A DNA stretch of 64,000 bases from Halarcobacter sp. (GCA_048571215.1 CP182352.1:640001-704000), one strand, 5' to 3'; counted from the first letter of the stretch, positions 603-19,002 are shown. A program made the numbers and translations. Notes: generated from the sequence alone by a model not told the origin.

Positions 603-634
603 ATTATTACAAAAACTTATCGCTTCTTAATCGC
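603..634 (-). promoter_or_regulatory. GCGA direct-repeat box plus extended -10, upstream of the Tat SBP gene
   Basis: Minus strand GCGA ttaagaa GCGA taagtttttgt AATAAT; same spacing as five other sites. Confidence 0.7.
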
Positions 635-663
635 GAATTAAATTTTTTTTAAATCATTTAATA

Positions 664-695
664 GCGATAATTTCGCGAAACATTTTTGGAATAAT
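664..695 (+). promoter_or_regulatory. GCGA direct-repeat box plus extended -10, upstream of ORF 747
   Basis: GCGA taatttc GCGA aacatttttgg AATAAT. Confidence 0.7.
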
Positions 696-746
696 CTATT
701 CAACAAATCTTAATAAGTTTTGTAAATCAAATTAGAGGGAGAAGGG

Positions 747-1472
747 ATGAGTGTTAAGTTTGGTAAAGTATTTTTCTTTACAATATTTGTTTTTTTTAGT
801 TGTGTATCAGTATTTGCAGGTGAGTATAAAGCTTCATTAGCTCAAATGCCCGTATATGCTGAAAGTACAGACAAGGGTGTATTAGTTGATCTAACTAAGG
901 CTATTGAAAAAGCAAGTGGTGAGACTATATCTATAAAAGTGATGCCTTTTGCAAGTTCTGTTTATATGGCACAAAAAGGAAAAGTAGATTTTCATATGCC
1001 ACTAATCAAAAATGATACAATTAGTGAAGACAAACTACCTTTTATGTACTCAAATGAGACTATCTTTCATGTTAATTTTGTTTTATATACAAAAAAAGGA
1101 AGTGATGTAACTTTAGATAATTTATCAAGTAAAAAAGTTGAAACAGATAGAGCTCATGTAAACTACTTTCCTTTTGATATTAAACCAACAAACTCTATTG
1201 CAAAAAGTTTAGAAAAAGTTGAGAGTGGGGCAATAGATGCCTTTATTTTTGCAGATTTTGCTACAGATCCATTTTTAAAACAATCAGGTTCTAAAGATAT
1301 ACAAAGAAGTTTATATAAAGTGTTTGAGTCTAAAATTGTATTACCTAAAACACAAAGGGGTAAAGATGTTGATAAGATGTTAACAACTGCAATTGAAAAA
1401 CTAAGAAAAAGTAAAGAACTAGAAAAGATTATGCATAATATCGACTTACCTTACGATAATTGGCAACCATAA
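747..1472 (+). CDS. Periplasmic solute-binding protein (family 3 / PBP2-like), orphan
   Basis: Signal peptide (VFA|GEY); G.LVDL.KAI, GKVD, L..GAIDAFI and C-terminal L.KSKELEKI pattern typical of SBP_bac_3; no adjacent permease. Confidence 0.75.
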   Translation: MSVKFGKVFFFTIFVFFSCVSVFAGEYKASLAQMPVYAESTDKGVLVDLTKAIEKASGETISIKVMPFASSVYMAQKGKVDFHMPLIKNDTISEDKLPFMYSNETIFHVNFVLYTKKGSDVTLDNLSSKKVETDRAHVNYFPFDIKPTNSIAKSLEKVESGAIDAFIFADFATDPFLKQSGSKDIQRSLYKVFESKIVLPKTQRGKDVDKMLTTAIEKLRKSKELEKIMHNIDLPYDNWQP

Positions 1473-1476
1473 ACAA

Positions 1477-1501
1477 AATAAGCGGTAAAAAACCGCTTAT
1501 T
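1477..1501. terminator. Bidirectional intrinsic terminator between convergent genes
   Basis: Perfect inverted repeat aataagcggt-aaaaa-accgcttatt. Confidence 0.75.
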
Positions 1502-3161
1502 AATCTATCAAATCAAATGTTATATTAAAACAAGCACCTTTATACTCTTTTTTATTATATTTATATTGTTTATTGAACACTACAATTTTACCTTTATGTC
1601 GTTCATCTATTATATTTTGAGACATTGATAAGCCTAATCCAGTACCTTGATATTGATGTTTTGTAGTAAAATAAGGGTCAAATATTTTGTCAATAATATC
1701 TTCAGAAATCCCTTGTCCACTATCACAAATTGATAACTGAATTTTATTTGAATCAAGTTTTTTAGTTGAGATAAATATTAGTCTATCATTCTCTTTTTTA
1801 ATATTTTGTTTTAGGGCATCTTTTGCATTATTTAATATATTTATAAAAGCTTCAGATAACTCATTTTTATTTCCAAAAATCTTACCATCATCTTCTATAT
1901 CTAATATTAGGTTTATATAGTTGTGTTTTAATGAAGGGGCTATTAAATTTAATGATATCTCTATAACATCTTTTAAGAAAACTTCTTGAATTATATTTTC
2001 ACCTTTAATAAAGTTTCTAAAATTGTCAATTGTATTTGATAAATAATTTGACTGTTTCATTATAATCTCTACAGTTTCATTTATGTATTCTTTTGTTATC
2101 TCTCCAAATTCTGATTCTAGTTTGATTCCACTAGCTGAGGTTGTAATTACACTTAGAGGTTGTCTCCATTGATGGGCAATATTTCCTATCATTTCACCCA
2201 TAGATGCTAGTCTTGCTTGTTGCTCCATGATTTTTAAAGTGGAGATATTTTTTAAAGTTAAAAGAATTCTTTTCTTATCAGGTAATAAAGACATACTAAT
2301 ACTTACAGTTATTTTTCTATTTCCATTTACAATATAATCTTTTTCAAAATCTTTAGAATGACCAGTTTTTATAACTTGTTCTAAAGCATCTTGATTTCTG
2401 TCTCTATGTTCTAAGATAGTTAGTTCATTTGAACTTTTATTTAAAAGTTCTTTTTTTGTATAACCTGTCATCTCTAAAAAAGCTTTATTAAAGTTCAAAA
2501 AATTTGTTTCAAAATCGATAATTGCAATTCCATCTTTTGCATAATTAAAAATTGTTTCAAGTTCATTTTTTTTAGCTTCTAATTCATCTTTTAATTTTTG
2601 TTGTTTAGCTGATTCTCTCAATAGTTTTAAAGTATTTGTAGATAAAACTTTATACATTGACATTACTAGACTAGTTAGTTTTTTTGTATTGCCATCCATT
2701 CTTTTTTGAGCTTCTTTATAAGCTTCTTCATAAGATTTTCCTTTTTTCAATGACATAACCTTATATGCCATAAATCTATCTGATTCAAGGATGTGGGATA
2801 CTAACCATTGCACAAGAAAATCAAGTATATTCTCAGCAATCTCCTCTATAGTACTATTTTTTGCTTTTTTAATTAATTTTTTTAGTTCTTGTATAAAATT
2901 TTTATGAATTTTTTGATGTTTTATTTCACTTTCTTTATTATTTATATACTTATTCCAAATTGTTTCTTCTGAATTAAAATGGTAATTTGTATAATCGATA
3001 AGTTCATTAAATATATTATTAATATCTATAGAATTTGAATTGTATGCAAATTGTGTTGCTAAATTATTTATTATATCAACTAATTTTTTGTGTTGTTGAT
3101 CGACAATCTCAATGCCTGTATTAAAACTATCATTCCACGGAATAATATCAATTTTATTCAT
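1500..3161 (-). CDS. Cytoplasmic sensor histidine kinase: bacteriohemerythrin + PAS + HisKA + HATPase
   Basis: WNDSFNTGIEIVDQQHKKL, YHFNSEE, H..IH..F and WLVSHILESD hemerythrin ligands; PAS (N.AF..MTGY..EEL); H-box IAHQWRQPL; N-box NILNNAKDA; DSGQGI, FDPYFTTK, GTGLGL. Confidence 0.9.
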   Translation of the reverse strand: MNKIDIIPWNDSFNTGIEIVDQQHKKLVDIINNLATQFAYNSNSIDINNIFNELIDYTNYHFNSEETIWNKYINNKESEIKHQKIHKNFIQELKKLIKKAKNSTIEEIAENILDFLVQWLVSHILESDRFMAYKVMSLKKGKSYEEAYKEAQKRMDGNTKKLTSLVMSMYKVLSTNTLKLLRESAKQQKLKDELEAKKNELETIFNYAKDGIAIIDFETNFLNFNKAFLEMTGYTKKELLNKSSNELTILEHRDRNQDALEQVIKTGHSKDFEKDYIVNGNRKITVSISMSLLPDKKRILLTLKNISTLKIMEQQARLASMGEMIGNIAHQWRQPLSVITTSASGIKLESEFGEITKEYINETVEIIMKQSNYLSNTIDNFRNFIKGENIIQEVFLKDVIEISLNLIAPSLKHNYINLILDIEDDGKIFGNKNELSEAFINILNNAKDALKQNIKKENDRLIFISTKKLDSNKIQLSICDSGQGISEDIIDKIFDPYFTTKHQYQGTGLGLSMSQNIIDERHKGKIVVFNKQYKYNKKEYKGACFNITFDLID

Positions 3162-3247
3162 TAAAATCCTTATAAATACTATTATTATATAAATATAATA
3201 AATTATTAATTAATCATAAAAATATCAATAATAATTTAATAATTATT

Positions 3248-4009
3248 TTATAATAATTCTATTTTATAACCAGTATTATTTTGATTTATAATTAAATCTT
3301 TATGTATTTTATTCCTTAATCTAAAAAGCAAAGACCTAAAAGCGGCATATCCTGCTGGTTCATCTTGCCATATTGCATATTCTAATTGTTCTTGAGAAAT
3401 ATTTTGTCCTGGCGTTTGACATAAAACTTTTATGATTTTTATCTCTTTTGAGGTTAGTTTTACTGGATCATCCCCAAAATACAAAATCTCTTTTTCTTTA
3501 TCAAACAGATAACCATATTTTAGTTTGATAGTTCTTGATTTTGATTCTGTATTTAAAGATAATTTATGTTCTAAGGTTTTATTTATATTTTGTACAGCAG
3601 TTAAACTACTTTTATTTTTATTATCCTCATAGGATTTTTTTAGTGCAACTTCTATTGCTGCTTGAAGATGACTTTTTTTGTATGGTTTAATCAAGTATCC
3701 ATAGGCTAAAGTTTCAGAAGCTTCTTTTATTGTTGCAAGTTCAGAGTTTGCTGTTAAAAAAATAACAGGTACATTAGGTAAAATATTTTTTAATTCTTTT
3801 GCTAAAACTATTCCTGTTGTTGGACCTTGAAGATATATATCCATTAGAATCAAATCAGGTACAATTTTCTTTTCATTTAATAGTTTCATTGTATTACAAC
3901 GGTTATTTGCAATTCCACAAGGTTCATATTCCAACTCAGCTAAAACATGTTTTAGATTTAAAGCAATAATTGGCTCATCTTCAACTATTAAAATTTTTAT
4001 TTTACTCAT
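3248..4009 (-). CDS. Response regulator, REC + OmpR/PhoB-type winged-helix domain
   Basis: IVEDE, LMDIYL phosphoacceptor, FLTA, IKPY; C-terminal LTSKEIKII...IW...FRSLLFRLRNKI...GYKI. Confidence 0.88.
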   Translation of the reverse strand: MSKIKILIVEDEPIIALNLKHVLAELEYEPCGIANNRCNTMKLLNEKKIVPDLILMDIYLQGPTTGIVLAKELKNILPNVPVIFLTANSELATIKEASETLAYGYLIKPYKKSHLQAAIEVALKKSYEDNKNKSSLTAVQNINKTLEHKLSLNTESKSRTIKLKYGYLFDKEKEILYFGDDPVKLTSKEIKIIKVLCQTPGQNISQEQLEYAIWQDEPAGYAAFRSLLFRLRNKIHKDLIINQNNTGYKIELL

Positions 4010-5307
4010 TTAATCTCCTTTTTGGGAAATACAATATTGCATTCCAAACCATTATTATTTGTAAACTCTATTTTTCCATGTAATTGAAAATCAACTATAG
4101 AATGGATTAGTTGCATACCTATAGAATCAGCTTTTTCTAACTTATCTAAATCTTTAAGACCTTCACCGTTATCTCTTATTTTTACATGTATATCTTCACC
4201 TTTTAATCTCATATGAACACAGAGTAAGTTTTTTTTATCCTCTTTAAAGGCATATTTAAAAGCATTTACACAAAGTTCATGAAGAAGCATCCCTACTTGG
4301 ATAGATTTATTTATAGAAAACTCCATTTTATCGATATTTAAATCAACATCTATATGGGTATTATTTGAGATATATAACTCTTTTATATCTTCAATAAGTT
4401 TTTCAAGATACTCATTTACATTTATATAAGCTAGGTTTTCTCCTAAGTATAAAAATTCATGAACTAAAGCCATTGCATGGATTTTACTTCTACTCTCCTT
4501 CATCTGTTCTTTAAACTTTTCATCTTCCGATTTATATGCTTGCATATTAAGTAATGAAGAGATTATTTCCATATTATTTTTTACTCTATGGTGTATCTCT
4601 TTTAGCAAAATCTCTTTTTCTTTTACAGATTTTTGTAGCTCTTCATTCATATTTGTGATTTTATTTCTATTTGCAATCCTTTGGGTCATATCTCTAGCAA
4701 AAGCACAAATATACTCTTTATCATTGTAGATAAAGGAGTGACCAGAAACCTCCACTGGATATAAGGTCCCATCTTTTCTTTTATGTACTGATTCTATTCT
4801 CCAATTTGGAGTATTCTTTATCTCTTGCATACAAAAAGGTGAGGTCTGTCTTGTAAAGTTAGGGTCAACATCCTCCAAATACATATTTTCAAACTCCTCT
4901 TTTGAATACCCATCTAATTTGCAAGTGGCATTGTTAACATATATAAATTTTCCATCTAGGGTAAACCAATGTATGGCATCAACAGAATGATCAAGAGCAA
5001 ACTCATAGGGTGCCAATCTATCTTTCTCTTTTTGTTTTAAATCATTATATGCTCTTTCTATATTTTTAATAACTTTTTGCATATGGTTAATCATTAAATA
5101 AAGTATTATTCCTGTTGAAATAATAAATAAAATGCCAAAAGTTAGGGGACCTTGCTTGCTTATATCATTGTTTTCAAAAAAAATACTAACTAACTTATCT
5201 AGAAGGGTTATCCCCACTATTCCAACTAAAATAAAAGTTATAGAAAAACGTTTTGCTATTTTATTTGTATTAAAAAATCTTCTACTTATATTTAACATTT
5301 TTGTCAC
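4006..5307 (-). CDS. Membrane sensor histidine kinase, 2 TM + PAS + HisKA_2 + HATPase
   Basis: Two hydrophobic segments; PAS (YVNNATCKLDGYS...RKDGT.YPVEVS); LKEIHHRVKNN HisKA_2 H-box; ELCVNAFKYAF, DNGEG, SIGMQLI; overlaps the regulator start (ATGA coupling). Confidence 0.9.
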   Translation of the reverse strand: MTKMLNISRRFFNTNKIAKRFSITFILVGIVGITLLDKLVSIFFENNDISKQGPLTFGILFIISTGIILYLMINHMQKVIKNIERAYNDLKQKEKDRLAPYEFALDHSVDAIHWFTLDGKFIYVNNATCKLDGYSKEEFENMYLEDVDPNFTRQTSPFCMQEIKNTPNWRIESVHKRKDGTLYPVEVSGHSFIYNDKEYICAFARDMTQRIANRNKITNMNEELQKSVKEKEILLKEIHHRVKNNMEIISSLLNMQAYKSEDEKFKEQMKESRSKIHAMALVHEFLYLGENLAYINVNEYLEKLIEDIKELYISNNTHIDVDLNIDKMEFSINKSIQVGMLLHELCVNAFKYAFKEDKKNLLCVHMRLKGEDIHVKIRDNGEGLKDLDKLEKADSIGMQLIHSIVDFQLHGKIEFTNNNGLECNIVFPKKEIK

Positions 5308-5350
5308 CTTTTCAAAATTATATCATATAAATTTTTTTAAGTTAAACAGT

Positions 5351-5382
5351 GCGAATATTTCGCGAATAATTTTTTATATACT
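5351..5382 (+). promoter_or_regulatory. GCGA direct-repeat box plus -10, upstream of mdh
   Basis: GCGA atatttc GCGA ataatttttta TATACT. Confidence 0.72.
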
Positions 5383-5410
5383 TCAATAATTTATATATGA
5401 AGGGTAGCAA

Positions 5411-6346
5411 TTGAAGGGAAGTAAGGTTGGAATAGTAGGTGTTGGTAATGTTGGTTCAACTCTGGCATATGCACTAGCTACAAAAGGGGTTTGTGATTAT
5501 ATTTTATTAAAAGATATAAGGGGAAACTTCACAAAAGCAATGGCATTGGATATATCACAAGCTGCTAGTTCTGTTAGCTCTAAGACACTTATATTTGCAG
5601 TTGAAGAGGATAGTGAATTTAAAGATTGTGATGTGGTTGTAATAACAGCAGGCGTTGCAAGAAAACCTGGTATGAGTAGAGATGACTTACTAAATACAAA
5701 TGCTAAAATTATGAGTTCAATAATCAAAAGTGTCACTAAATACAATGAAAAAGCGATAATTATAATAGTATCAAACCCTTTAGATCTTATGGTTTATACT
5801 GCTCTTAAAATATCAAATTGGACACGAAATAAAATAATTGGTATGGCAGGTATTCTTGATAGTTCAAGAATGAACCATTTTATAAAAGAGAAATTAGGCG
5901 CTAAAAAAATCGAAACCTCTGTAATGGGTGGACATGGGGATGATATGGTTCCCTTAGTTGAATCAACAATGGTAGATGGTGTTTTTTTATCAAAACTTCT
6001 ATCAAAAGAGGAGATTGAGGAGATAATTGAAAAAACCAAAAGTGCTGGACTTGAGATTGTAAAATTACTAGAAACAGGATCTGCATATTATGCTCCTGCT
6101 CACTCAACAGCACTTATGGTAGAGTCTATTTTAAAAGATAAAAAAGAAGTTTATCCTTGTTCTGTAAAACTTAATGGAGAATATGGCTTTACTAATGTAG
6201 TAACTGGTGTCCCAATTATTTTAGGAAAAAATGGGATAGAAGAGATTATTGAACATAAGTTAAGTAAAAATGAAAAAGTTCAATTTTCAAAATCTGTTAA
6301 TTCTGTTATCTCTTTAATCGATAAACTTGATGCAAATGGAAAATAA
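5411..6346 (+). CDS. mdh: Malate dehydrogenase (LDH-like tetrameric type)
   Basis: GVGNVG Rossmann motif; TAGVARKPGMSRDDLL (Arg-type substrate loop); SNPLD, GILDSSR, GGHGDDMVP, GSAYYAP; TTG start. Confidence 0.88.
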   Translation: MKGSKVGIVGVGNVGSTLAYALATKGVCDYILLKDIRGNFTKAMALDISQAASSVSSKTLIFAVEEDSEFKDCDVVVITAGVARKPGMSRDDLLNTNAKIMSSIIKSVTKYNEKAIIIIVSNPLDLMVYTALKISNWTRNKIIGMAGILDSSRMNHFIKEKLGAKKIETSVMGGHGDDMVPLVESTMVDGVFLSKLLSKEEIEEIIEKTKSAGLEIVKLLETGSAYYAPAHSTALMVESILKDKKEVYPCSVKLNGEYGFTNVVTGVPIILGKNGIEEIIEHKLSKNEKVQFSKSVNSVISLIDKLDANGK

Positions 6347-6461
6347 ATATCCAATTTCAATCTAACAATTAAAAAATTTTTTTATTATAAATATTTATAA
6401 GTTTTATATATATTTTTTTTTGAAAAAAAGTTTAGAGTTTTTTTCATAATTTCTTTATTTT

Positions 6462-6493
6462 GCGATTATTATGCGAATTTTTTAAAGTAAAGT
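6462..6493 (+). promoter_or_regulatory. GCGA direct-repeat box plus -10, upstream of the meta-cleavage operon
   Basis: GCGA ttattat GCGA attttttaaag TAAAGT. Confidence 0.72.
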
Positions 6494-6546: not shown

Positions 6547-6870
6547 GTGAAACATACAATCTTAGTAAAAAACAAGAATAGAAAACATACTTGTATTGAG
6601 ACTAAAAATCTTATGGATGGTTTGAATGTTTATGCAAACCTAGTTCCTAAAGGTTGTCATAACGGTGCATGTGGTGTGTGTAAAATTCATGTTCTAAAAG
6701 GGGAATATTGCTCTAAAGGAAAAATGAATAGAAAACACATAACTGAGGAAGAGGAAAAAAATAACATTGTTTTGGCGTGTAGAGTTTTTCCTAAAGGTGA
6801 TATGGATATAGAGTTTATTCCAAGAACTATACCAAGTATCAAGAAAAAAGTATATGTATTAGGTAACTAA
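6547..6870 (+). CDS. xylT: XylT-type [2Fe-2S] ferredoxin (C23O reactivation)
   Basis: GCHNGACGVC...KMNRKHITEEEE...VLACRVFP; directly precedes C23O. Confidence 0.85.
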   Translation: MKHTILVKNKNRKHTCIETKNLMDGLNVYANLVPKGCHNGACGVCKIHVLKGEYCSKGKMNRKHITEEEEKNNIVLACRVFPKGDMDIEFIPRTIPSIKKKVYVLGN

Positions 6871-6886
6871 ATTTAAGGAGAGTAAA

Positions 6887-7834
6887 ATGAGCGGTATTAT
6901 GAGAATGGGTCATATAGACATTAATGTTTTAGATATTAATGAGTCAAGAGAATATTATGAAAATATAATGGGACTAAGCGTTACAAGAGAAGATAGTGAT
7001 GGTACTTTATACCTAAAATGTTGGGATGAATGGGATAAATATAGCCTTGTTCTTAGACCAAGTGATGAGGCAACTTTTAACAAAGTGGGTTATAAAGTAG
7101 AAAAAGATTCAGATATCGATGATTTAAAAGCAAAAATAGAAGCTTATGGGATTTCAACTGAAATTTTACCAGCAGGAACTGTTGCAGAATGTGGAAGAGT
7201 TCTAAAATTTAACCTTCCAAGTGGACATGAGTTTAACTTATATGCAGAAAAAACTTTTATGGGGAAAGATGTTGGAGTTGTAAATCCAAGACCTTGGCCT
7301 TTTGAAGGAAGAGGTATAAAAGCTCACTGGATTGATCATGTATTATTGATGTGTGAGGGTCCAGAAAATGTTATGGCTTCTACAAAATTTTGTATGGAGG
7401 TTTTAGAGTTTAATTTAGCAGAACAAGTTACAGTTGGACCAGAAGGTTCTCTTCAAGCAGCAACTTGGCTTGCAAGAACTTCAACTCCTCACGACATAGC
7501 ATTTGTTGCTGGAGCTGAAACAGGTATGCATCATTTTGCTTTCTTCTTAGATGGATGGAATGATATTTTAAGAGCAGCGGATGTTATGGCTATGCATAAT
7601 GTAAAAATTGATGTAACTCCACAAAGACATGGTATTACAAGAGGTGAAACTATTTATTTCTTTGACCCATCAGGACATAGATTAGAAACATTTGCAGGAT
7701 TAGGTTACCTAATGCAACCAGATATGCCAACAGTTACTTGGACTGAAGATGAATTATGGAGAGGAATCTTTTACCATACTGGTGCAGAAGATGGAGCATT
7801 TACAACTGCTTATACATTATCCGCATATAAATAA
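6887..7834 (+). CDS. xylE: Catechol 2,3-dioxygenase (extradiol; resembles subfamily I.2.C)
   Basis: YLKCWDEWDKYS, WIDH, PHDIAFV, HHFAF, RHGITRGETIYFFDPSG.R.ETFAGLGY; His/His/Glu Fe(II) triad present. Confidence 0.95.
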   Translation: MSGIMRMGHIDINVLDINESREYYENIMGLSVTREDSDGTLYLKCWDEWDKYSLVLRPSDEATFNKVGYKVEKDSDIDDLKAKIEAYGISTEILPAGTVAECGRVLKFNLPSGHEFNLYAEKTFMGKDVGVVNPRPWPFEGRGIKAHWIDHVLLMCEGPENVMASTKFCMEVLEFNLAEQVTVGPEGSLQAATWLARTSTPHDIAFVAGAETGMHHFAFFLDGWNDILRAADVMAMHNVKIDVTPQRHGITRGETIYFFDPSGHRLETFAGLGYLMQPDMPTVTWTEDELWRGIFYHTGAEDGAFTTAYTLSAYK

Positions 7835-7842
7835 GGAATTTT

Positions 7843-8268
7843 ATGATTTTAACAGTAACTGAAAAATCTATATCAAGACAAGCTTCAAACCAAGCTTGTC
7901 TTTTGGCAATAGAAAAAGCAGAAGAATTAAATATAAAAATAAATGTTTCAGTTGTAGATAATAAAGGCTTGGAAATGGCTTTTTTAAGAATGGAAGATGC
8001 TTTTATACACTCAATTGATATAGCTAAAGATAAAGCATATACAAGTGCAAGTTTTGGTTTTCCAACAGATACCTGGACTACTATTTTCAAAAGCATGCCG
8101 CACTTGGAACAAGGTTTTTCTAATAGAGAAAGACTTGTTCCATTTGGAGGAGGTCTGCCGATTTTTGAAAATGGTATCAAAATTGGTGCTATTGGTGTAT
8201 CAGGTGGAACTGAAGAGGAAGATATTATATGTGCAAAATATGCAATTGAAAAAATAGGATTAGAATAA
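7843..8268 (+). CDS. GlcG/HbpS-family heme-binding protein (NahX-like)
   Basis: VSVVD..G...FLRMEDA...SIDIAKDKAYTS...FGGGLPI...IGAIGVSGG.EEED. Confidence 0.85.
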   Translation: MILTVTEKSISRQASNQACLLAIEKAEELNIKINVSVVDNKGLEMAFLRMEDAFIHSIDIAKDKAYTSASFGFPTDTWTTIFKSMPHLEQGFSNRERLVPFGGGLPIFENGIKIGAIGVSGGTEEEDIICAKYAIEKIGLE

Positions 8269-9725: not shown

Positions 9726-9728
9726 GTA

Positions 9729-10529: not shown

Positions 10530-10632
10530 AGAGTTACTTATTACTTCTTTTAGAGTTTTTAAAAAGGGTGAAAACACAAGCTTTTTAGGTGAGATTTACT
10601 TTCACTGGTAAAAAGAAATTACAGAATAAAAG

Positions 10633-10665
10633 GTCCCTTTAAAATAGGGACTATTTTTAAGGATA
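10633..10665 (+). repeat. Intergenic hairpin + U-tract + RBS element (copy 1)
   Basis: gtccct-ttaaaat-agggac-tatttttaaggata; near-identical to 13427-13459. Confidence 0.55.
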
Positions 10666-10669
10666 TAGA

Positions 10670-11554
10670 ATGAAAATTAATTGTGCATTGATAGGTCCAG
10701 GAAATATTGGTTTAGACCTAATGTATAAACTTCAAAGAAGTGAAATACTTAATCCATTATGGATGGTGGGGATTAACGAAGGATCAAAAGGTTTAGCAAA
10801 AGCTAGAGATAATGGTCTTAAAACTACACATAATGGTGTAGATGGATTATTAGAACATATTGAAAAAGATGAAATAAAAATTGCATTTGATGCAACGTCA
10901 GCATATGTACATGGTGAAAATAATAGAAAATTAAAAGAAAAAGGTGTAATGGTTATTGACCTTACACCAGCAGCTATTGGACCATTTTGTGTACCTTCAG
11001 TAAATCTACAAGAGTTATTGGCACAAAATACACAAAATGTAAACATGGTAACTTGTGGTGGACAAGCAACTATTCCTATGGTTGCAGCTGTTTCACAAGT
11101 ACAAGCAGTTGAATATGGTGAAATAGTTGCTACTATTGCTTCAAAATCAGCAGGACCTGGTACTAGAGCAAATATTGATGAGTTTACAGAAACTACAGCT
11201 TTAGGGATTGAAAAAGTTGGTGGGGCAAAAAAAGGTAAAGCAATTATTATATTAAATCCAGCAGAGCCGCCACTTATGATGAGAGATACTGTTCATTGTT
11301 TAACTGTAGGTGAACCAGATCAAGAAGCTATTACTGAATCTGTTCATAAGATGATAGCAAAAGTTCAAAGATTTGTACCTGGATATAAACTAAAAAATGG
11401 ACCAGTATTTGATGGAAATAGAGTATCAATCTTTTTAGAGGTTGAAGGGCTAGGTGATTATTTACCAAAATATGCAGGAAATCTAGACATCATTACAGCA
11501 GCTGCAACAGATGTAGCAGAGCAAATGGCTGAAAAAATAAAAGCAGGGGTATAA
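10670..11554 (+). CDS. dmpF: Acetaldehyde dehydrogenase (acylating)
   Basis: [47 protein letters not shown]. Confidence 0.93.
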
Positions 11555-11555
11555 G

Positions 11556-12584
11556 ATGGATTTAAATGGTAAAAAAATAAAAATACATGATATGTCTTTA
11601 AGAGATGGAATGCACTCTATTAGACATCAGTTTACTCTTGATCAAATGAAAAATATGGCAACAGCTATGGATGATGCAGGAGTTCCATATATTGAAGTAA
11701 CTCATGGGGATGGACTAGGTGGTTCATCTGTAAATTATGGCTTTGGATTACATAGTGATGAAGAGTGGTTAGATGCAGTTGTTCCAAACTTAAAAAAATC
11801 AAAAGTATCTGTACTTTTATTACCAGGGATTGGAACAGTACAAAATCTAAAAAGTGCTGTAAAACATGGTGCTTCAATGGTTAGAGTTGCAACTCACTGT
11901 ACAGAAGCTGATGTATCAGCACAACACATAAAAGCTGCACGTGAAATGGGACTTGATACAGTTGGATTTTTAATGATGTCTCATATGATTGATGAGAAAA
12001 AATTATTAGAACAAGCGAAATTGATGGTTTCTTATGGAGCAACAACAGTTTATGCAACTGATTCAGCAGGATATCTTTTACCAGAAGGTGTTTACAAAAG
12101 AATTGATACTATTAAACAACATTTTGGTGATGATATTGAAGTTGGTTTTCATGGTCATAACAATATGTCTATGGGAGTTGCTAACTCAATTGCAGCTATT
12201 GAAGGTGGTGCAAATAGAATTGATGCATCACTAGCTGGATTTGGTGCTGGTTCTGGAAATACTGCAACTGAAGTATTGGTTGCTGTTTTAAGTAGAATGG
12301 GTGTTGAAACTGGAATTGATTTAAATAAAATTGAAGATGCAGCTGAAGATATTGCATTACCAATTATGGGTAAACCTACAAGAATCTCAAGGGATTCATT
12401 AACTTTAGGATATGCAGGTGTTTATTCATCATTTTTACTTTTTGCAAGACGGGCACAAGAAAAATATGGTATTGATGCTAGAGCAATTCTTATAGAGTTA
12501 GGAAAAAGGGGAACTGTTGGTGGTCAAGAGGATATGATTGAAGATTTAGCCTTAGATATGGCAAAAGAAAAAGGACTTATATAA
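11556..12584 (+). CDS. dmpG: 4-hydroxy-2-oxovalerate aldolase
   Basis: [53 protein letters not shown]. Confidence 0.93.
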
Positions 12585-13372
12585 TGGCACTAGATAAAGA
12601 AACAATAGAAAAACTTGCAAAACATTGTGAAGATGCAGAAATAAATGCTTATGAGATTACTAAGATAACAGATGATTATCCTGAAATGACTTATAAGGAT
12701 GCCTTTGATATTCAATGGACAGCAAGAAGAAATAAAGAGGCTCGTGGTACTAAGATTATTGGTATGAAGATGGGGCTAACTAGCCAAGCAAAAATGAAGC
12801 AAATGGGTGTTGAAAATCCTTGTTATGGATATTTGGCTGATTACTTTGCATATGCTGATGGAGCTGAGATTGAGATTGATAAACTGATACATCCAAAGGT
12901 AGAAGCTGAGATTGCTTTTGTTTTAAAAGAGGATTTAGCAGGACCTGGCTGTCATATTGGTGATGTAATAGCTGCTACTGATTTTGTTATGCCTGCTGTT
13001 GAGATTATTGATTCAAGATATAAAGATTTTAAATTTGATTTAAAATCAGTTATTGCAGATAACTCTTCATCTTCAAGATATGTAACAGGTGGGCAAGCAA
13101 GGGATATTAAAGGTTTAGACCTTAAAACTCTTGGTGTAGTTATGGAAATAAATGGTGAAATAGTTCAACTTGGAGCTGGTGCTGCTGTTCTTGGACATCC
13201 TGCAACTTCTATTGCAATGCTTGCAAATATGATGGCTGAAAGAGGTGAAACACTTAAAAAAGGTGAATATATTTTATCAGGTGCAATCACAGCTGCTATA
13301 TCAGTAAAAAAAGGTGATAATGTAAATGTTAAATTCCAAGATTTAGGTTCTGTGTCATTTAAGTTTGTATAG
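12584..13372 (+). CDS. dmpH: 4-oxalocrotonate decarboxylase
   Basis: KMGLTSQAKMKQMGV, HPKVEAEIAF, DSRYKDFKFDLKSVIADNSS. Confidence 0.92.
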   Translation: MALDKETIEKLAKHCEDAEINAYEITKITDDYPEMTYKDAFDIQWTARRNKEARGTKIIGMKMGLTSQAKMKQMGVENPCYGYLADYFAYADGAEIEIDKLIHPKVEAEIAFVLKEDLAGPGCHIGDVIAATDFVMPAVEIIDSRYKDFKFDLKSVIADNSSSSRYVTGGQARDIKGLDLKTLGVVMEINGEIVQLGAGAAVLGHPATSIAMLANMMAERGETLKKGEYILSGAITAAISVKKGDNVNVKFQDLGSVSFKFV

Positions 13373-13426
13373 GTTTTTTACTTTAAATGGTTCTATAAAT
13401 CATTTTAAAAGTAGAAAAAATTATCA

Positions 13427-13459
13427 CTCCCTAAAAAATAGGGAGAATTTTTAAGGATA
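13427..13459 (+). repeat. Intergenic hairpin + U-tract + RBS element (copy 2)
   Basis: ctccct-aaaaaat-agggag-aatttttaaggata. Confidence 0.55.
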
Positions 13460-13463
13460 CATT

Positions 13464-13655
13464 ATGCCAATAGCAACTATAAATATTATTGAGGGTCGCG
13501 ATGATGAAAAAAAAGAGAAGCTTATTGAAAAAGTAACTCTTGCTATTCATGAATCATTAGATGCTCCAATTGAGACGATTAGGGTGATTTTAAATGAGAT
13601 GCCAAAACAGCATTATGGTATAGCTGGAAAAAGTGTAAAAAAACTAGGAAAATAG
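13464..13655 (+). CDS. dmpI: 4-oxalocrotonate tautomerase
   Basis: Catalytic Pro1 after Met (MPIA), EGR, IRVIL.E...HYGIAG; 63 aa. Confidence 0.92.
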   Translation: MPIATINIIEGRDDEKKEKLIEKVTLAIHESLDAPIETIRVILNEMPKQHYGIAGKSVKKLGK

Positions 13656-13657
13656 TA

Positions 13658-14674
13658 GTGAAGTTAAAATTAAGTGTATTAGACCAATCCCCAATACATG
13701 ATAACAAAGAGGCTAAGAGTGGTCTTTTTGATACAATAGAATTAGCAAAACTTTGTGAGGATTTAGGATATAAAAGGTATTGGTGTGCAGAGCATCATGA
13801 TACACCAGGATATGCAAGTTCATCACCTGAGATAATGGTTGCAGCTGTAGCTTCTGCCACTTCAAAAATAAGAGTAGGAAGTGGTGGGGTGATGTTAAAC
13901 CATTATAGTGCTTATAAGGTAGCTGAAATATTTAATACCTTAACTGCTCTTCATGGTTCTAGAATAGATTTAGGAATAGGTAGAGCCAATGGAGCAAATT
14001 TTTTAAGTGCAAGGGCACTTCATAATAAAAATAGTGATTCTTATGCCCAAAAAGCAAACGATTTAATAAATTATTTAAACGATACTGTACCCAAAAACGA
14101 TTATTTTCATGGGGTTGGAATATCTCCTAAAGATGTTGAATCAACTCCTGTATACCTATTGGGTTCTAGCGATGGAAGCTCTGCTTTAGCTGCCCATCTT
14201 GGAGCTAGTTTTTGTTTAGCTTTATTTATTGGAACCCATGAGAGACCAATAGAAATAATTGAAAATTATAAAAAGCAATTTAAAGCTTCAAAAACTTTTA
14301 ATAAACCAAAACCTATGATAGCAGTTGCTTGTATATGTGCACCCACAAAAGAGGAGGCAATACAAATAGCATCAAGCCATACCTATTGGAAAGTTCAAGC
14401 TTTTAGACACACTACAAGAGATGGTTTACATAGTCCCCAAGAGGTAGAAGAACTATACGAAGAGTTATCTTATGATGATAAAATATATTATCACGAGACT
14501 ATGAAAACTATGGTTTTAGGTACACCAAAAGAGTGTAAAGAGAAAATAGAAAATTTAGCAAAAGAGTATGGAGTTGATGAGGTTATGCTTGTTAATGTAA
14601 CTTACTCTTTTGAAGATAGAAAAAGATCATATAAACTTTTAGCCAAAGAGTTTAATTTAAATAAAGGAGAATAG
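13658..14674 (+). CDS. Luciferase-like (LLM) flavin-dependent oxidoreductase, YhbW/MsnO8-like
   Basis: LSVLDQSP, GYKRYWCAEHH, SSSPE, IRVGSGGVML.HYS, RIDLGIGRA, LLGSS..S. Confidence 0.85.
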   Translation: MKLKLSVLDQSPIHDNKEAKSGLFDTIELAKLCEDLGYKRYWCAEHHDTPGYASSSPEIMVAAVASATSKIRVGSGGVMLNHYSAYKVAEIFNTLTALHGSRIDLGIGRANGANFLSARALHNKNSDSYAQKANDLINYLNDTVPKNDYFHGVGISPKDVESTPVYLLGSSDGSSALAAHLGASFCLALFIGTHERPIEIIENYKKQFKASKTFNKPKPMIAVACICAPTKEEAIQIASSHTYWKVQAFRHTTRDGLHSPQEVEELYEELSYDDKIYYHETMKTMVLGTPKECKEKIENLAKEYGVDEVMLVNVTYSFEDRKRSYKLLAKEFNLNKGE

Positions 14675-15499
14675 ATGTCACAAAATCCTGAAATTGCAAA
14701 TAGTATAAAAACAGGAAGTTTTAATACAAATTATCATGATATTGGAGAGGGTGAACCAATCATTTTTATTCATGGTTCAGGACCTGGGGTTTCAGCATTT
14801 GCAAATTGGCGGTTGTGTATGCCTGTACTTGCTGAAAAATTTAGAGTAATTGCGCCTGATATGGCAGGTTTTGGTTTTTCTGATAGACCTGAAGGAATGA
14901 TTTATAACATGGATGTTTGGCTTAAACAAACAATCGATTTAATGGATGCTTTAGGTATTGAAAAAACAAATCTAGTGGGAAATTCATTTGGTGGAGCTTT
15001 AGCATTAGCTTTAACTATTAAATATCCTCAACGATTTGATAAAATTGTACTTATGGGTGCAATGGGAGTTGAGTTTGAGATTACAGCTGGACTTGATCAA
15101 GCTTGGGGATATACACCAAGCTTAGAAAATATGAAATCATTGCTTGATACCTTTGCTTATAGTAGAGTATTGGTAACTGACGAGTTAGCAAAATTAAGAT
15201 ATGATGCAAGTATTAGACCTGGATTTCAAGAATCGTTTGGTTCAATGTTCCCTGAACCTAGACAATCCTCAGTTACTGCAATGGCTAGTGATGAAGAGAA
15301 TATAAAAAAAATAAAAAACAATGTTCTAATTATTCATGGTAGAGAAGATAAAGTTATCCCTTTTGAAAACTCAATAAGATTACATAATTTGATAACAAAA
15401 TCACAATTACATGGTTTTGGAGAATGTGGACATTGGAGTCAAATAGAACATAAAGATAGATTTAATGAGCTTTTATTAGATTTTTTTAGTGAAGAGTAA
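14675..15499 (+). CDS. dmpD: 2-hydroxymuconic semialdehyde hydrolase
   Basis: HGSGPGVSAFANWR, APDMAGFG, GNSFGG nucleophile, HGREDKVIP, CGHWSQIE. Confidence 0.92.
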   Translation: MSQNPEIANSIKTGSFNTNYHDIGEGEPIIFIHGSGPGVSAFANWRLCMPVLAEKFRVIAPDMAGFGFSDRPEGMIYNMDVWLKQTIDLMDALGIEKTNLVGNSFGGALALALTIKYPQRFDKIVLMGAMGVEFEITAGLDQAWGYTPSLENMKSLLDTFAYSRVLVTDELAKLRYDASIRPGFQESFGSMFPEPRQSSVTAMASDEENIKKIKNNVLIIHGREDKVIPFENSIRLHNLITKSQLHGFGECGHWSQIEHKDRFNELLLDFFSEE

Positions 15500-15541
15500 T
15501 ATTGTATAATTAATTTTATTTAATTATACAAAGGATTGATA

Positions 15542-16498
15542 ATGAATTTTATAATTTTGGGTGCTGGTGGTATAGGTTCTTTTTATGGTGCAAAACTAAT
15601 TGAACACGGACATCATGTCTTATTCGTAGCAAGAGGTGAACACTTAAAAGCCTTACAGCAAAATGGTTTGAAGTTGCAGCACCCAAAATTTAAGTTTAAT
15701 AAAAAAGTTGATGTCACCCAACTTTCTTTTTTAAACTCTGAAATGCTTCTAAAAGTTAATGCTGTAATTATTACTACTAAATCAACTTCAACTGAATATA
15801 TTGCAAAGGAGTTGTCTTCATATTTAGCTTCAAAACAAGAGAGTTTTCCTTTCATTATCTCTTTACAAAATGGGGTCGAAAATGAAGATATCCTTTGCAA
15901 GTATTTCCCAAAAGATAAAGTAATAGGTGGTTTGTGTAGAAAAATTGGGGCACATATAGTAAAGCCTGGAGTTATTGAAGCTACAGGGGATATTGAAACT
16001 ATAATAGGTGCTATGAAACTTACAAATAAAAGTAAAGCATTTTTATTGGATTTTAAAAATATTTTAACAGATGCAAATATATTTTGTGGTATTACTGATA
16101 ATATAAAATTTGAGTTATGGAAGAAATTAATTATTAACAATGGAGTAAATGCTATTTGTGCATTGTTAAGAATTAAAACCGGGAAATTGATGTCCCATAA
16201 TAAGTTATCTAAAATAGTATTGGAACTTATGAAAGAAACAGCTACAGCTGCAAGGGTTCAAGGGGTAAAATTCACAAATGAAGATGTTATTCAAATGTAT
16301 GAACTTATTAAAAACTTTGATTCTATAAAACCTTCAATGTTAGTTGATGTAGAAAACAATAGACCTATTGAATTAGATGAGATATGCACTATAGTTATAA
16401 AAAACTGTGAATCACTTAAGCTAGACGCTCCTTATACTAGAACTATATCAACTTTATTATCTTATACTTATATAGAAAAAAGAGGCTTTAAAAATTAA
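15542..16498 (+). CDS. Ketopantoate reductase (PanE/ApbA) family protein
   Basis: GAGGIG, LQNGV.NE, LWKKL..N...N, KPSML.D..N.RPIEL; ATG at 15542 follows AAGGA RBS. Confidence 0.82.
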   Translation: MNFIILGAGGIGSFYGAKLIEHGHHVLFVARGEHLKALQQNGLKLQHPKFKFNKKVDVTQLSFLNSEMLLKVNAVIITTKSTSTEYIAKELSSYLASKQESFPFIISLQNGVENEDILCKYFPKDKVIGGLCRKIGAHIVKPGVIEATGDIETIIGAMKLTNKSKAFLLDFKNILTDANIFCGITDNIKFELWKKLIINNGVNAICALLRIKTGKLMSHNKLSKIVLELMKETATAARVQGVKFTNEDVIQMYELIKNFDSIKPSMLVDVENNRPIELDEICTIVIKNCESLKLDAPYTRTISTLLSYTYIEKRGFKN

Positions 16499-17376
16499 TG
16501 TTATATCAAATCATAAATATACTCTTTCCTGTATTATTAGCAAGTTCAATAGGGTATGTTTATGGAAAATTTCAAAAATTAGATATGGAGATACCAAATA
16601 AAATAAATCTTGATATTTTTATCCCTATTTTGATTTTTTATGCAATTAGTGAAAAACTTCCCTCTATCACAGTTCTTGGATATTTCTCTTTAGGTGCAGT
16701 ACTTGTGGTTTTTGGTTCTGGTATTATTTTGTACCCATTTTTAAAATTTTTAGATATTAACATAAGAGCTTTTTTACCCACAATGATGTTTAATAACTCT
16801 ATAAATTTAGGTTTACCTTTGGCTTTATTTGCCTTTGGTCAAGAGGCTATGGCTATGTTTATAGCCTTATCTTTAGTGCAAGTAATTGGGCAGTTTACGG
16901 TTGCAGTTGTTATGTATGGAGGGAGTTTTAAACTATTTGATTTATTAAAAAATCCTGTAATCATAGCTACGATTATAGCACTTATTTTTAACTATTTTGA
17001 TTTTCATTTACCACAATTAATAATCTCTTCTGTAGATATGTTATCTAAAGTTGCCATACCTTTAATACTTTTTTCCCTTGGGGTTAAATTATCTACTGTT
17101 AAGTTTGCACATTATAAAGTTGGCATTATTGGTGCAATTTTATGTCCATTATCTGGGCTTGCTATGGCATATTTAGCTATAGAGATTTTTGAATATACAG
17201 CTTTACAAAAAGATTTAATAATCCTTTTTGGGGTATTACCACCTGCTGTTTTAAATGCAATCTTAGCGGAAAAATATAATCAAGACTCTTCAATGGTAGC
17301 TTCTGTTGTAGCTATGGGAACACTTTCTAGTATTATTTATATCCCTATCGTTTTATATTTTTTATTACAAAACTAG
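16498..17376 (+). CDS. AEC (auxin efflux carrier/malate permease) family transporter
   Basis: Highly hydrophobic; F.P.LIF, N...LGLPL, KNPVI.A, AIPL.LFSLG, PPAV. Confidence 0.82.
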   Translation: MLYQIINILFPVLLASSIGYVYGKFQKLDMEIPNKINLDIFIPILIFYAISEKLPSITVLGYFSLGAVLVVFGSGIILYPFLKFLDINIRAFLPTMMFNNSINLGLPLALFAFGQEAMAMFIALSLVQVIGQFTVAVVMYGGSFKLFDLLKNPVIIATIIALIFNYFDFHLPQLIISSVDMLSKVAIPLILFSLGVKLSTVKFAHYKVGIIGAILCPLSGLAMAYLAIEIFEYTALQKDLIILFGVLPPAVLNAILAEKYNQDSSMVASVVAMGTLSSIIYIPIVLYFLLQN

Positions 17377-17408
17377 TAATAATATTTTTATTTACACTTT
17401 TAATCTAT

Positions 17409-17440
17409 GCGATAAATTTACGAATTATTTTTTGTATTAT
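17409..17440 (+). promoter_or_regulatory. GCGA-type direct-repeat box plus -10, upstream of a small ORF
   Basis: GCGA taaattt ACGA attattttttg TATTAT (one mismatch in second core). Confidence 0.6.
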
Positions 17441-17472
17441 GCTTATAATAAATAACAAATATAGGCATAGTT

Positions 17473-17559
17473 ATGAAAGATTACTTAGGGTTACATTTCT
17501 TAGTTATTAATTTAAGTTTAGTATTCTTTATATTATGTCATTTGTATTTGAAATTTTAA
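17473..17559 (+). CDS. Putative 28-aa single-pass membrane peptide
   Basis: MKDYLGLHFLVINLSLVFFILCHLYLKF*; weak AGG RBS; preceded by a boxed promoter. Confidence 0.4.
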   Translation: MKDYLGLHFLVINLSLVFFILCHLYLKF

Positions 17560-17627
17560 AAATAGTTAGTTTAGAAATAATAAACCATGTTCTATAAAAA
17601 AGCATAATTTAGAGAAGATAGTTTTAA

Positions 17628-17659
17628 GTGCCCTTTTATGGAGGAGTATAAAAGAGCAC
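17628..17659 (-). terminator. Hairpin downstream of the porin gene
   Basis: gtgcccttttat-ggaggagt-ataaaagagcac (G-U pair on the minus-strand RNA). Confidence 0.6.
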
Positions 17660-17667
17660 GAGTTATA

Positions 17668-18864
17668 TTAGAATTTATATGTTAAATAAACTCTTGTAGT
17701 GTCTGTATCTTTTGGTATCTTTTCAACCTCTACATGTTCATAGTTTACTTTAAGAAGTAAGTTTTTTGAAACAGGATATATTGCTATAGCACCCATTGCT
17801 GTAACATCACCGATTGGATGAGTTGAAGACATAGATTTACCAGCATACCCAACTGCAGTTGCACCCATAACAGGAACAGCAATAGCACCCACTATTGTAT
17901 CTGTATCTGCTCTAGTTGGAACTCCACCACCATGTACTGGCATTGCAGTAAAAGGAGTATCTGTTGTACCTGAACCTGCACCTACATATACAGGAGCATT
18001 CTTATCTGTACTTGAATTATATGCTAACACATATCCAAGTTTTCCTATCCCTAATGGTCCAGTAGCTTTTAATCCAAAAAGTTTTCCATCTTGTGCATTT
18101 GCAGCTTGAGTTTTATCAGTTGATGATAAGAATTGAGCTGAAAGCATGTGACCATTTAAATTATAGTCTGCTTGTAAATATAAAGCATCTTTATCTGTTG
18201 CAGAAGTTTTTCCACTTTCATCTAAATATTGAGCTTGTAGAGTTAAATTTTCAATAGAAGTATTTTTTGCATAGATTGTATATGCACCATCTTGAAAATC
18301 TTTAAAATCTCCTATATCATTTGATGTAGCATCAACTTTGTTTTGATATTTGTTTACATAACCTGCAACAAGAGTAGTGTTAGGAATATCAGTATTTGTT
18401 AAAACATAAGCTTCAAATGAATCTTTTAATACAGTCTCAGAAGATTTCCCATCAATTGCTGTACTTACAAGTGGTGTATAGATATATTGTCTACCAGCTT
18501 TCAAACTTGTATTAGAGTATTTATATTGAATATAAGATTCTGATAATCTAGCTCCTGATGCATCCAGTGGGTCTATTTGAGGTCCTGCTGTTGGAGCATT
18601 GAAGTCATCAGTTAATACAGTTGAAGCTTGAAAGGTAACTCCTGCTGAAAAACCATAAAAATCTCCAGTAATTACCCCAAGGCTACCACCAACTGCAGTA
18701 ATATCTTCTGATTTTGCTGCACCCAGAAAATTAGAATCAGAGTACTCTGCTTTAATCTCACCTTTAACCTTAAGATTTTGTAATGCATCTGAAAGGTTAT
18801 CTGCTAATAGTGGAGTAGTGATTGCTATAGATGCAATCAAACTTAAGCATGAAATTTTTTTCAT
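17668..18864 (-). CDS. Outer-membrane porin (OprD/Campylobacterota porin-like)
   Basis: Signal peptide; DNLSDAL...KVKGEI; LSESYIQY, KAGRQ...TPL; amphipathic strands; C-terminal RVYLTYKF. Confidence 0.85.
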   Translation of the reverse strand: MKKISCLSLIASIAITTPLLADNLSDALQNLKVKGEIKAEYSDSNFLGAAKSEDITAVGGSLGVITGDFYGFSAGVTFQASTVLTDDFNAPTAGPQIDPLDASGARLSESYIQYKYSNTSLKAGRQYIYTPLVSTAIDGKSSETVLKDSFEAYVLTNTDIPNTTLVAGYVNKYQNKVDATSNDIGDFKDFQDGAYTIYAKNTSIENLTLQAQYLDESGKTSATDKDALYLQADYNLNGHMLSAQFLSSTDKTQAANAQDGKLFGLKATGPLGIGKLGYVLAYNSSTDKNAPVYVGAGSGTTDTPFTAMPVHGGGVPTRADTDTIVGAIAVPVMGATAVGYAGKSMSSTHPIGDVTAMGAIAIYPVSKNLLLKVNYEHVEVEKIPKDTDTTRVYLTYKF

Positions 18865-18970
18865 TTTATTCCCTTATGTTATATTTAGATTTTCAAAACT
18901 AAGATTTTTTCCTTAATATAAAAATTCGCAAAACTATTAAAGAAAATTCTTAGGATGAATTTCAATACTA

Positions 18971-19002
18971 AATATAGTTAAATGAAATCGCACTTTAATC
19001 GC
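18971..19002 (-). promoter_or_regulatory. GCGA direct-repeat box plus -10, upstream of the porin gene
   Basis: Minus strand GCGA ttaaagt GCGA tttcatttaac TATATT. Confidence 0.72.

Follow-up and report, generated by a model that had tools for sequence, protein, structure and literature searches.

How the predicted turnover of phenol is controlled in a bacterium of the Arcobacteraceae is the question raised by a stretch of 64,000 nucleotides from Halarcobacter sp. (GCA_048571215.1, CP182352.1:640001-704000), referred to here as the window. Its first 19 kb and the DNA upstream of it hold a cluster that combines a dmp-type phenol hydroxylase with a meta-cleavage pathway, and phenol hydroxylases are usually under the control of the sigma54 activators DmpR or MopR. 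In this cluster, every aromatic-catabolism unit is preceded by a direct repeat, GCGA-N7-GCGA with G or A as the first base of the second word (the box), which stands 11 nt (N11) ahead of a -10-like hexamer. The box is probably the site bound by two response regulators, RR1 and RR2. Once phosphorylated by kinases with PAS and HisKA_2 domains, these would act from the -35 position, in the manner of PhoB, to activate promoters of the housekeeping sigma factor. A first-pass annotation of the window had proposed a regulon of this kind, with the regulator encoded at 3248-4009 as its activator and a mode of control different from the sigma54 and LysR types.

Six 32-bp sites had been described in the window, and their positions, strands and hexamers all proved correct on re-reading, including the ACGA that forms the second word of the fifth site. 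They lie at 603-634 (-; hexamer AATAAT), 71 nt ahead of the start of a Tat-type periplasmic binding protein and with the same box in four orthologous loci; at 664-695 (+; AATAAT), 83 nt ahead of the gene for a solute-binding protein of family 3 (SBP3) and with orthologous boxes in L054, L055 and L119; at 5351-5382 (+; TATACT), 60 nt ahead of the malate dehydrogenase gene mdh; at 6462-6493 (+; TAAAGT), 85 nt ahead of the meta-cleavage operon; at 17409-17440 (+; TATTAT), 64 nt ahead of a small open reading frame (ORF); and at 18971-19002 (-; TATATT), 138 nt ahead of a porin gene. The 11-nt geometry holds for all six, but the reading of each hexamer as a -10 element has to be restricted, since AATAAT at 603-634 and 664-695 lacks the first T of a -10 and is accompanied by TG at -15/-14 instead. 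The six sites are real, but the set was incomplete, as three further boxes lie upstream of the window, before dmpKLMNOP (95 nt ahead of dmpK), before tauE and, as a GCGA-N7-ACGA variety, before an SDR gene, which gives nine cluster sites in all.

The window contains 5 exact GCGA-N7-GCGA pairs against 0.02 expected from 100 dinucleotide shuffles. When the whole window was scanned, no exact pair was found beyond 19 kb, and the earlier impression by eye that there were none therefore holds for exact pairs. The 3.61-Mb genome (28.5% GC) has 13 exact pairs, 7 of them within a 33-kb stretch (C1:625832-659002). Three of the remaining 6 are identical copies in a repeated GC-rich sequence, which probably represents the rRNA operons, two overlap in an 11-bp tandem repeat, and one lies at C1:923486. 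Exact pairs with TANNNT at N11 occur five times in the genome, each time inside the catabolic cluster, and a relaxed pattern gives 13 matches, of which 9 belong to the cluster and 4 do not. For one-mismatch pairs, N7 shows no enrichment across the genome (19 intergenic pairs versus 12-30 for other spacings), and the site at 17409 therefore rests on its conservation, being intact in 5/7 orthologous loci. A palindromic, LysR-like reading of the box, GCGA-N5-TCGC, was rejected because it fits only 11 of the 95 distinct sites; reverse-strand one-mismatch boxes before HK1, HK2 and tauE were dropped because they are shadows of this palindrome. As side observations, the exact pair at C1:923472-923486 (-; L003:7487), between an M50 peptidase and an EamA gene, has neither a -10 at N11 nor a gene behind it, and another site outside the cluster lies at C1:1359431.

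Conservation was assessed in 184 Arcobacteraceae genomes and in 20-kb loci from 35 relatives and the genome of the window; 115 of the 136 listed sites were counted, leaving out 13 without a named downstream gene, 6 palindrome shadows and 2 attributed to dmpN-like genes. Of the 184 genomes, 36, from 9 of 22 genera, encode the hydroxylase large subunit, and all 36 have an exact box 57-105 nt ahead of dmpK with TANNNT at N11. The same hexamer pattern at N11 is found for the meta operon (26/26), the SDR gene (26/26), mdh (9/9), the porin gene (6/6) and tauE (4/4); for the Tat binding protein (0/5) and SBP3 (1/3), the remainder have AATAAT. Across distinct orthologous sites, the hexamer stands at offset 11 in 89/95, the next-best offset reaching 20/95. 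The flanking sequence diverges, while eight bases and two spacings are fixed in 36/36 genomes. As a control, the hexamer was found at N11 in only 4 of 38 pairs from genomes without hydroxylase among the matches listed (92 more are unlisted); two of these 4 look like regulon sites, and one sits on a contig with a regulator fragment. At least three boxes occur in 34/36 hydroxylase genomes versus 4/148 others. The kinase, at E<=1e-60, is present in 39/184 genomes, namely all 36 with the hydroxylase and 3 with a distant paralogue only. Genes that have been rearranged or added bring boxes with them, as seen for a tmo-like monooxygenase (G005, G065), an MCP gene and prephenate dehydratase. The plasmid pACLO of Arcobacter cloacae bears the cluster with five boxes; it may be among the 36 and was not counted twice.

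These counts tie the box to the winged-helix family of the regulator at 3248-4009, which the first-pass annotation had named as the driver of the regulon, but the regulator itself is an accessory paralogue. By best-hit label, the HK2-type kinase that accompanies RR2 is found in 12/36 loci, one of them a 45% fragment, whereas the RR1 pair, divergent from dmpK, is kept in 34/36 and lies elsewhere in the other two. In the genome of the window, RR1 (C1:623721-624479) and HK1 (C1:624479-625780) lie 16-19 kb before the window; RR2 is 77% identical to RR1, and HK2 is 64% identical to HK1. RR1 and RR2 have the same recognition helix, and therefore either could read the boxes.

The argument that most strongly supports the pair as reader of the box comes from outside the family, where the enzymes change while box and pair stay. 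A kinase profile search of other Campylobacterales found the kinase-regulator pair in 13 genomes of four other families; G218, whose 630-aa kinase has another architecture, was left out of the family count. None of these pairs adjoins dmp genes, and a sample of 361 genomes from other families yielded no phenol hydroxylase. Instead, the pair lies next to genes for a cytochrome c and a Tat protein, and to one for a flavoprotein of the p-cresol methylhydroxylase/vanillyl-alcohol oxidase type (pchCXF-like); dmp, pch, tmo and lig labels were assigned in this analysis from family matches. The Arcobacteraceae flavoprotein copy matches PDB 9h40 (E 3e-170), and the others share 33-36% identity with that copy or were identified from their N-terminal sequences. 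Although this operon is non-homologous to dmp, GCGA-N7-GCGA-N11-TANNNT stands before the cytochrome gene in 13/13 genomes, 8 of which were read only after the prediction had been made. G335 at first seemed a miss, but its box lies on another contig than the pair, before the same pch-like operon. A second box precedes an aldehyde dehydrogenase gene in G221, G492 and G630, and the box is kept in genomes of 36-57% GC. In G492, genes for a 4-hydroxybenzoate hydroxylase and LigB also lie beside the pair. Flavocytochrome operons of the p-cresol-methylhydroxylase type were further noted in at least five Campylobacterales families (L115, L116, L124-L126, L151-L154, L164-L171, L290, L291), as was an additional protocatechuate 4,5-cleavage-like cluster in G221 and G492.

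A matched change of regulator and box was found within the Arcobacteraceae. In five genomes, a distant pair adjoins a pch-like operon, and in four of them the box is GAGA-N7-GAGA-N11-TACAAT. All five regulators with GAGA boxes have Gly (4) or Asn (1) at residue 226, whereas GCGA-associated regulators have Ser226, or Thr in one paralogue. The sister clade has the same preceding loop, yet Ser and GCGA. Both systems are present in G085 and G105. Residue 226 lies in the recognition helix according to profile matching, and we take its register to be that of Ser216 in PhoP, an assumed correspondence and not one from a computed alignment. In PhoP, Ser216 sits mid-groove (PMC4832192).

The regulator RR2 (3248-4009, -) consists of a receiver, a long helical linker and an OmpR/PhoB-type winged helix with R225-S226 in the recognition helix. 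The receiver (PF00072) has D11, D57, T86 and K108 invariant in 32/32 sequences, and the C-terminal domain matches PF00486 with 39.7 bits (cut-off 26.2). Profile matches of the winged helix include DrrD, ArlR, CovR, PhoP and PmrA, and the best fold matches are PrrA, KdpE and MtrA. The structure model (predicted local distance difference test score 83) shows the receiver followed by a pair of long helices and the winged helix, and whole-chain matches are OmpR/PhoB members. The earlier assignment to the OmpR/PhoB family thus stands for the winged helix, but the receiver appears closer to the EutV/PhyR type than to the OmpR type: its best sequence matches are CheY-, PhyR- and EutV-like proteins and 3cg0, and the first 153 residues as a rigid unit superpose best on EutV (root-mean-square deviation 3.9 A over 153 columns). 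No named OmpR-family model reaches its cut-off; the OmpR-type class is one of domain architecture, not of orthology to any named member; some database names for the regulator are PdtaR.

The sensor kinase HK2 (4006-5307, -) has 433 aa, two predicted transmembrane helices, one PAS domain, HisKA_2 (PF07568, 89.5 bits) with H240, and an ATPase domain. The loop between the hydrophobic helices is short and variable (conservation 0.48 versus 0.76 for PAS), which makes the cytoplasmic PAS domain or a membrane signal likelier than periplasmic sensing. PAS domains of the HK2 type, beside mdh and the meta operon or beside benABCD, have H113, T128 and H175 in 11/11, and those of the HK1 type have Y, A and Q at these positions in 24-25/25. 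The two types therefore probably sense different ligands, with shared ancestry explaining the residue pattern equally well. In the proposed mechanism, the cytoplasmic PAS domain would sense a phenolic, namely phenol in the case of HK1 and possibly catechol, benzoate or some other ring compound in that of HK2; kinases of the pch clades would sense p-cresol or a p-cresol product. The phosphoryl group would then pass from H240 to D57. That the pair reads the box but responds to something non-phenolic, such as redox state, oxygen or membrane stress caused by phenol, is considered rather improbable. PAS domains often sense redox or light, the nearest relatives among solved PAS structures, at low similarity, include sensors that bind FAD, flavin and haem, and the regulon contains the support genes mdh, leuB, panE, a pheA-like gene and an MCP gene, with a hemerythrin kinase behind RR2. 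Yet every mapped locus of the kinase family adjoins aromatic genes (dmp, tmo-like, ben, pch, lig) or has the box before them, and the PAS residues differ by catabolic setting, both of which favour a phenolic signal.

If the hexamer is placed at -12 to -7, the two halves of the box fall at about -38 to -35 and -27 to -24, a predicted position comparable to that of PhoB, which covers -41 to -25 at pstS (PMC10570014). A head-to-tail regulator dimer on the 11-bp repeat would recruit sigma70 RNA polymerase and replace the missing -35 element: a TTGACA match of at least 4/6 is found in only 13/115 sites, and there is no -35 consensus. A pyrimidine-purine step 7 nt past the hexamer is present in 20/28 dmpK and 20/23 dmpQ sites; a generic sigma70 scan (93 sites versus 103 expected) was uninformative. 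On the opposite strand, TG-n-TANNNT begins at a distance of exactly 25 bp from the box in 41/43 loci with a divergent kinase, with GG in the other 2, and is found in neither locus without a divergent kinase; in the window it is TG-n-TATAAT at 5317-5325 (-). From this extended -10 promoter, the kinase-regulator operon would be read at a basal level, and the same bound dimer may modulate it, perhaps by touching it as proposed for PceP, which also serves a divergent promoter pair (PMC7755780).

The same regulator on the same box might instead act by repression, covering the -35 region until the signal releases it. The box does overlap the polymerase footprint, and promoters of this bacterial class often lack a -35 consensus anyway, the -35 being less conserved in Sulfurospirillum (PMC7755780), so that its absence is weak evidence for activation. 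A repressor, in contrast, would not need a base-exact spacing to the -10, yet 89/95 sites keep 11 nt and the GAGA and pch clades do so too; the weak hexamers AATAAT, TAAAGT and TAGCAT also fit activator-dependent promoters. Repression is for these reasons judged very unlikely.

Similarly low odds are given to a reader encoded elsewhere, such as a global regulator or an alternative sigma factor, to which the pair would be only a neighbour. The N7/N11 geometry is ordinary in this genome, and the specific part is the GCGA word: intergenic word-N7-word-N11-TANNNT arrangements number 14 for GTGA, 11 for GCTA, 5 for GCGA and 4 for GTAG, and word repeats at N7 outnumber those at other spacings (41-76 versus 10-40 per offset). 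Since the geometry is common with other words, class II activation is supported as a habit of the winged-helix regulators of this genome. The 65 regulator-like matches in the genome leave room for another reader, as do orphan boxes in G011, G017, G057 and G106, which have neither hydroxylase nor kinase. However, boxes are scarce where the pair is missing, and the seven further sites in these four genomes, viewed separately, are mostly cluster remnants with a -10. In G106 only remnants of the cluster are left, and the boxes of G011 flank a deletion by which the start of the porin gene has become joined to the middle part of the gene for the regulator. Moreover, box and pair have stayed associated in four families despite different neighbouring enzymes, and they change together. 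Activation by the pair itself is the preferred reading, and a chance or compositional artefact of CG-poor DNA has a negligible probability: TANNNT is frequent in AT-rich DNA and one-mismatch pairs are unenriched at N7, but the excess over shuffled sequence and the conservation in 36/36 genomes and at 36-57% GC already refute it.

Some side observations concern these remnants and words. In G011, the catabolic genes are gone and four boxes remain; at L109:8251-8949, the porin promoter, box and first codons run, out of frame, into the middle part of the gene for the regulator. Other regulons of the same geometry are suggested by 14 GTGA(C) boxes in intergenic DNA, one of which precedes the gene of a receiver-winged-helix protein (e.g. 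C1:2589171, -; L117:9172), by GCTA boxes at about 10 sites, five within C1:55-75 kb (C1:55399-75094), and by GAGACA and GCAA boxes before genes for giant secreted proteins. In a more distant subfamily of receiver-winged-helix regulators, GATA-N7-GATA-N11-TATTAT stands next to the gene of the regulator itself (L190:3973, L191:3973).

Several points weigh against activation of the regulon by a phenolic-sensing pair. Binding, activation and ligand are inferred, and the genomes are kin with about three independent catabolic settings, so that the counts overstate independence. The change of Ser226 and GAGA is one event, in a clade with 100/100 support on a long branch, and is therefore a lead, not proof; the variant box of G085 is imperfect (GAGC..GAGA..TATAAT). 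The divergent box of the third paralogue in G093 and G100 has its TATAAT at N10, and no gene is evident behind this box; the pyrimidine-purine step is weak for the SDR gene (7/25) and absent for mdh (0/8). No ligand-bound close relative of the PAS domain was found among solved structures. The genome also has dozens of other regulators. In a metagenome scan of 80 loci, 58 of which were left out of mapping, the 21 relatives mapped at full or near full length (28-39%) belong to other subfamilies without GCGA boxes, with three close loci besides. RNA from a single metatranscriptome run (0.05 share) gave five short contig pieces and no start sites, and was uninformative.

The earlier claim that control differs from the sigma54 XylR/DmpR type is supported. 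The XylR_N domain was found in 0/184 Arcobacteraceae genomes, with a positive control of 3/3 gammaproteobacterial phenol plasmids, and no -24/-12 pattern occurs in 36 dmpK upstream regions. The DmpR/MopR-run dmp/mop operons encode the same enzymes, dmpN being 62-66% identical to the gammaproteobacterial plasmid copies, and in 2/3 controls the regulator is divergent from dmpK in the same slot as here; there, however, it is a one-component sigma54 activator, and the control loci have no box before dmpK. Rewiring of the operon because the host has no sigma54 was ruled out for the genome of the window, in which RpoN is present; it holds for only some relatives, as RpoN was not found in 3/4 other hydroxylase genomes tested.

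Among known systems, the closest in promoter design are the class II activators PhoB and PmrA (E. coli pho box, Klebsiella pmra-box; PMC10570014), which share the winged-helix dimer (predicted here), an 11-bp-period direct repeat replacing the -35 and a sigma70 -10. Differences lie in the word GCGA, the EutV/PhyR-like receiver with its long helical linker, HisKA_2 instead of HisKA, and the aromatic-catabolism target. PceS/PceP of Sulfurospirillum (PMC7755780) and SulS/SulR of Sulfurimonas (PMC12936845) are two-component systems of the Campylobacterota whose OmpR-type regulators bind direct repeats over the -35 of a catabolic regulon with a TANNAT-like -10. They differ in their repeats (CTATW-N17-CTATW and TTACA), in 7-transmembrane or periplasmic sensors, and in their signals, tetrachloroethene (PCE) and thiosulfate; at the present loci, the CTATW-N17-CTATW site and the 7-transmembrane sensor are absent, with GCGA-N7-GCGA and two transmembrane helices instead.

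For aromatic two-component systems, three groups have been distinguished; in each of them the regulators are of the NarL/FixJ type and the kinases are hybrid or have tandem PAS domains (PMC5874301). TodS/TodT, StyS/StyR, TmoS/T, TdiS/R and BphS/T share two-component control of aromatic catabolism, and TodS senses the aromatic by a cytoplasmic PAS domain (PMC5874301), whereas the present system has a winged helix, a single PAS domain, two transmembrane helices and HisKA_2. A NarL/FixJ helix-turn-helix was not found in the regulator, which has only Response_reg and Trans_reg_C, and TodS is not among the PDB matches of the kinase. EutW/EutV and PdtaS/PdtaR also have a HisKA_2 kinase, and the receiver with its long helix superposes on EutV. 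The output of EutV and PdtaR is an RNA-binding ANTAR domain, whereas the regulator here has a DNA-binding winged helix and no ANTAR match. Full-text literature searches, covering result listings and abstract starts with subscription papers and supplements outside their scope, found no description of the box, the kinase-regulator pair or phenol catabolism in Arcobacteraceae. The main texts of two family-wide genome papers (PMC11265409, PMC10336517) do not contain 'phenol', 'aromatic' or 'catechol'. In passages from two other papers, dmp genes were ascribed to Marinobacter, not Arcobacter (PMC6249378), and Sulfurimonas isolates grew on naphthalene, with no phenol (PMC7368058).

The genes served by the boxes form a complete phenol pathway by family models (K, L, M, N, O, P, catechol 2,3-dioxygenase, dmpC, E, F, G, H, I). 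Upstream of the window lies the six-subunit hydroxylase dmpKLMNOP (PF06099, PF02332 twice, PF02406, PF04663 and a reductase). The meta-cleavage operon (6547-17376, +) has TIGR03211, 03216, 03220, 03215, 03217, 03218 and 00013 above cut-off and encodes a ferredoxin, catechol 2,3-dioxygenase, an HbpS/GlcG-like protein, dmpC, dmpE, dmpF, dmpG, dmpH, a tautomerase, a luciferase-like oxidoreductase, a hydrolase, a panE-like protein and an AEC transporter. Predicted uptake and support genes are the 5' part of the Tat-type binding protein (3-563, -; PF13458), whose gene opens a liv-like ABC operon extending beyond the window on the upstream side, with livGFHM-like genes following in L002; SBP3 (747-1472, +; PF00497); mdh (5411-6346, +; NF004863 above cut-off); and an Opr/OprD-family porin (17668-18864, -; PF03573, with NF033923 below its cut-off). 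The hemerythrin-PAS histidine kinase downstream of RR2 (1500-3161, -) has no box, its position is not kept in the loci of relatives, and its role in the regulon is doubtful. The small ORF (17473-17559, +) encodes 28 hydrophobic residues (hydropathy up to 2.2) and is a predicted single-pass membrane protein found in 7/184 family genomes with the same start and length and with synonymous changes; its box is intact in five, degenerate in G105 and absent in G106, which has neither kinase nor hydroxylase. A role as a feedback element like MgrB is speculation.

Further observations concern the makeup of the cluster and its surroundings. Toluene-4-monooxygenase-like operons (TmoB, Rieske ferredoxin, two hydroxylase subunits) with their own box lie at L068:4000-8650 (G005) and L104:6204-9646 (G065), and a third kinase-regulator paralogue adjoins a benABCD-benE-MFS-porin cluster at L113:7191-17127 (G093) and in L114 (G100). 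Extra leuB, prephenate dehydratase, mdh and panE genes are repeatedly tied to the phenol cluster or its boxes (L100:1996-3063 and 25421-26458; window 5411-6346 and 15536-16498); possible reasons are the supply of coenzyme A and oxaloacetate, or enzymes that are inhibited by pathway intermediates. Between tauE and the ABC operon, inserted DNA (L002:11512-15240) holds an insertion sequence fragment (DUF772) together with a nucleotidyltransferase/HepT-like pair and two ORFs of defence-like character, and pACLO (L100) has HipA-type genes at a similar place. Elsewhere in the window, 25871-28564 (+) encodes a protein of 897 aa in which cache-like and CheW-like parts were made out by eye, and the glutamate synthase genes are followed by a long run of glycosylation/polysaccharide-like genes (33021-63689).

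Taken further, the system may be a fourth, undescribed class of aromatic two-component control native to Campylobacterota, a tentative proposal that is on balance doubtful. An ancestral p-cresol-type sensor with a chimeric regulator of EutV-like receiver and winged helix would have been recruited in Arcobacteraceae to control the phenol hydroxylase and the meta pathway, a task that sigma54 DmpR has elsewhere. Two signals would enter one GCGA regulon through paralogues that differ in their PAS pockets, Ser versus Gly/Asn would insulate the co-resident GAGA regulon, and the box-controlled 28-residue membrane protein would give feedback to the kinase. With other G-initial words at the same register, the regulons of these genomes could be read directly from their sequence.

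If control by the pair through the box is true, it would add a winged-helix, sigma70, HisKA_2 class of aromatic control with a binding site and a candidate one-residue specificity switch. It could be used for a compact phenol or cresol biosensor with two natural orthogonal boxes, and for assigning targets to many orphan winged-helix regulators of these genomes. For the family, it would mean that about a fifth of Arcobacteraceae species genomes (36/184) carry a predicted complete phenol pathway under boxes, with pACLO as the one named example of a plasmid-borne copy, and that cresol-type operons under the same switch occur in relatives to which their sources give the names Sulfurimonas and Sulfurospirillum.

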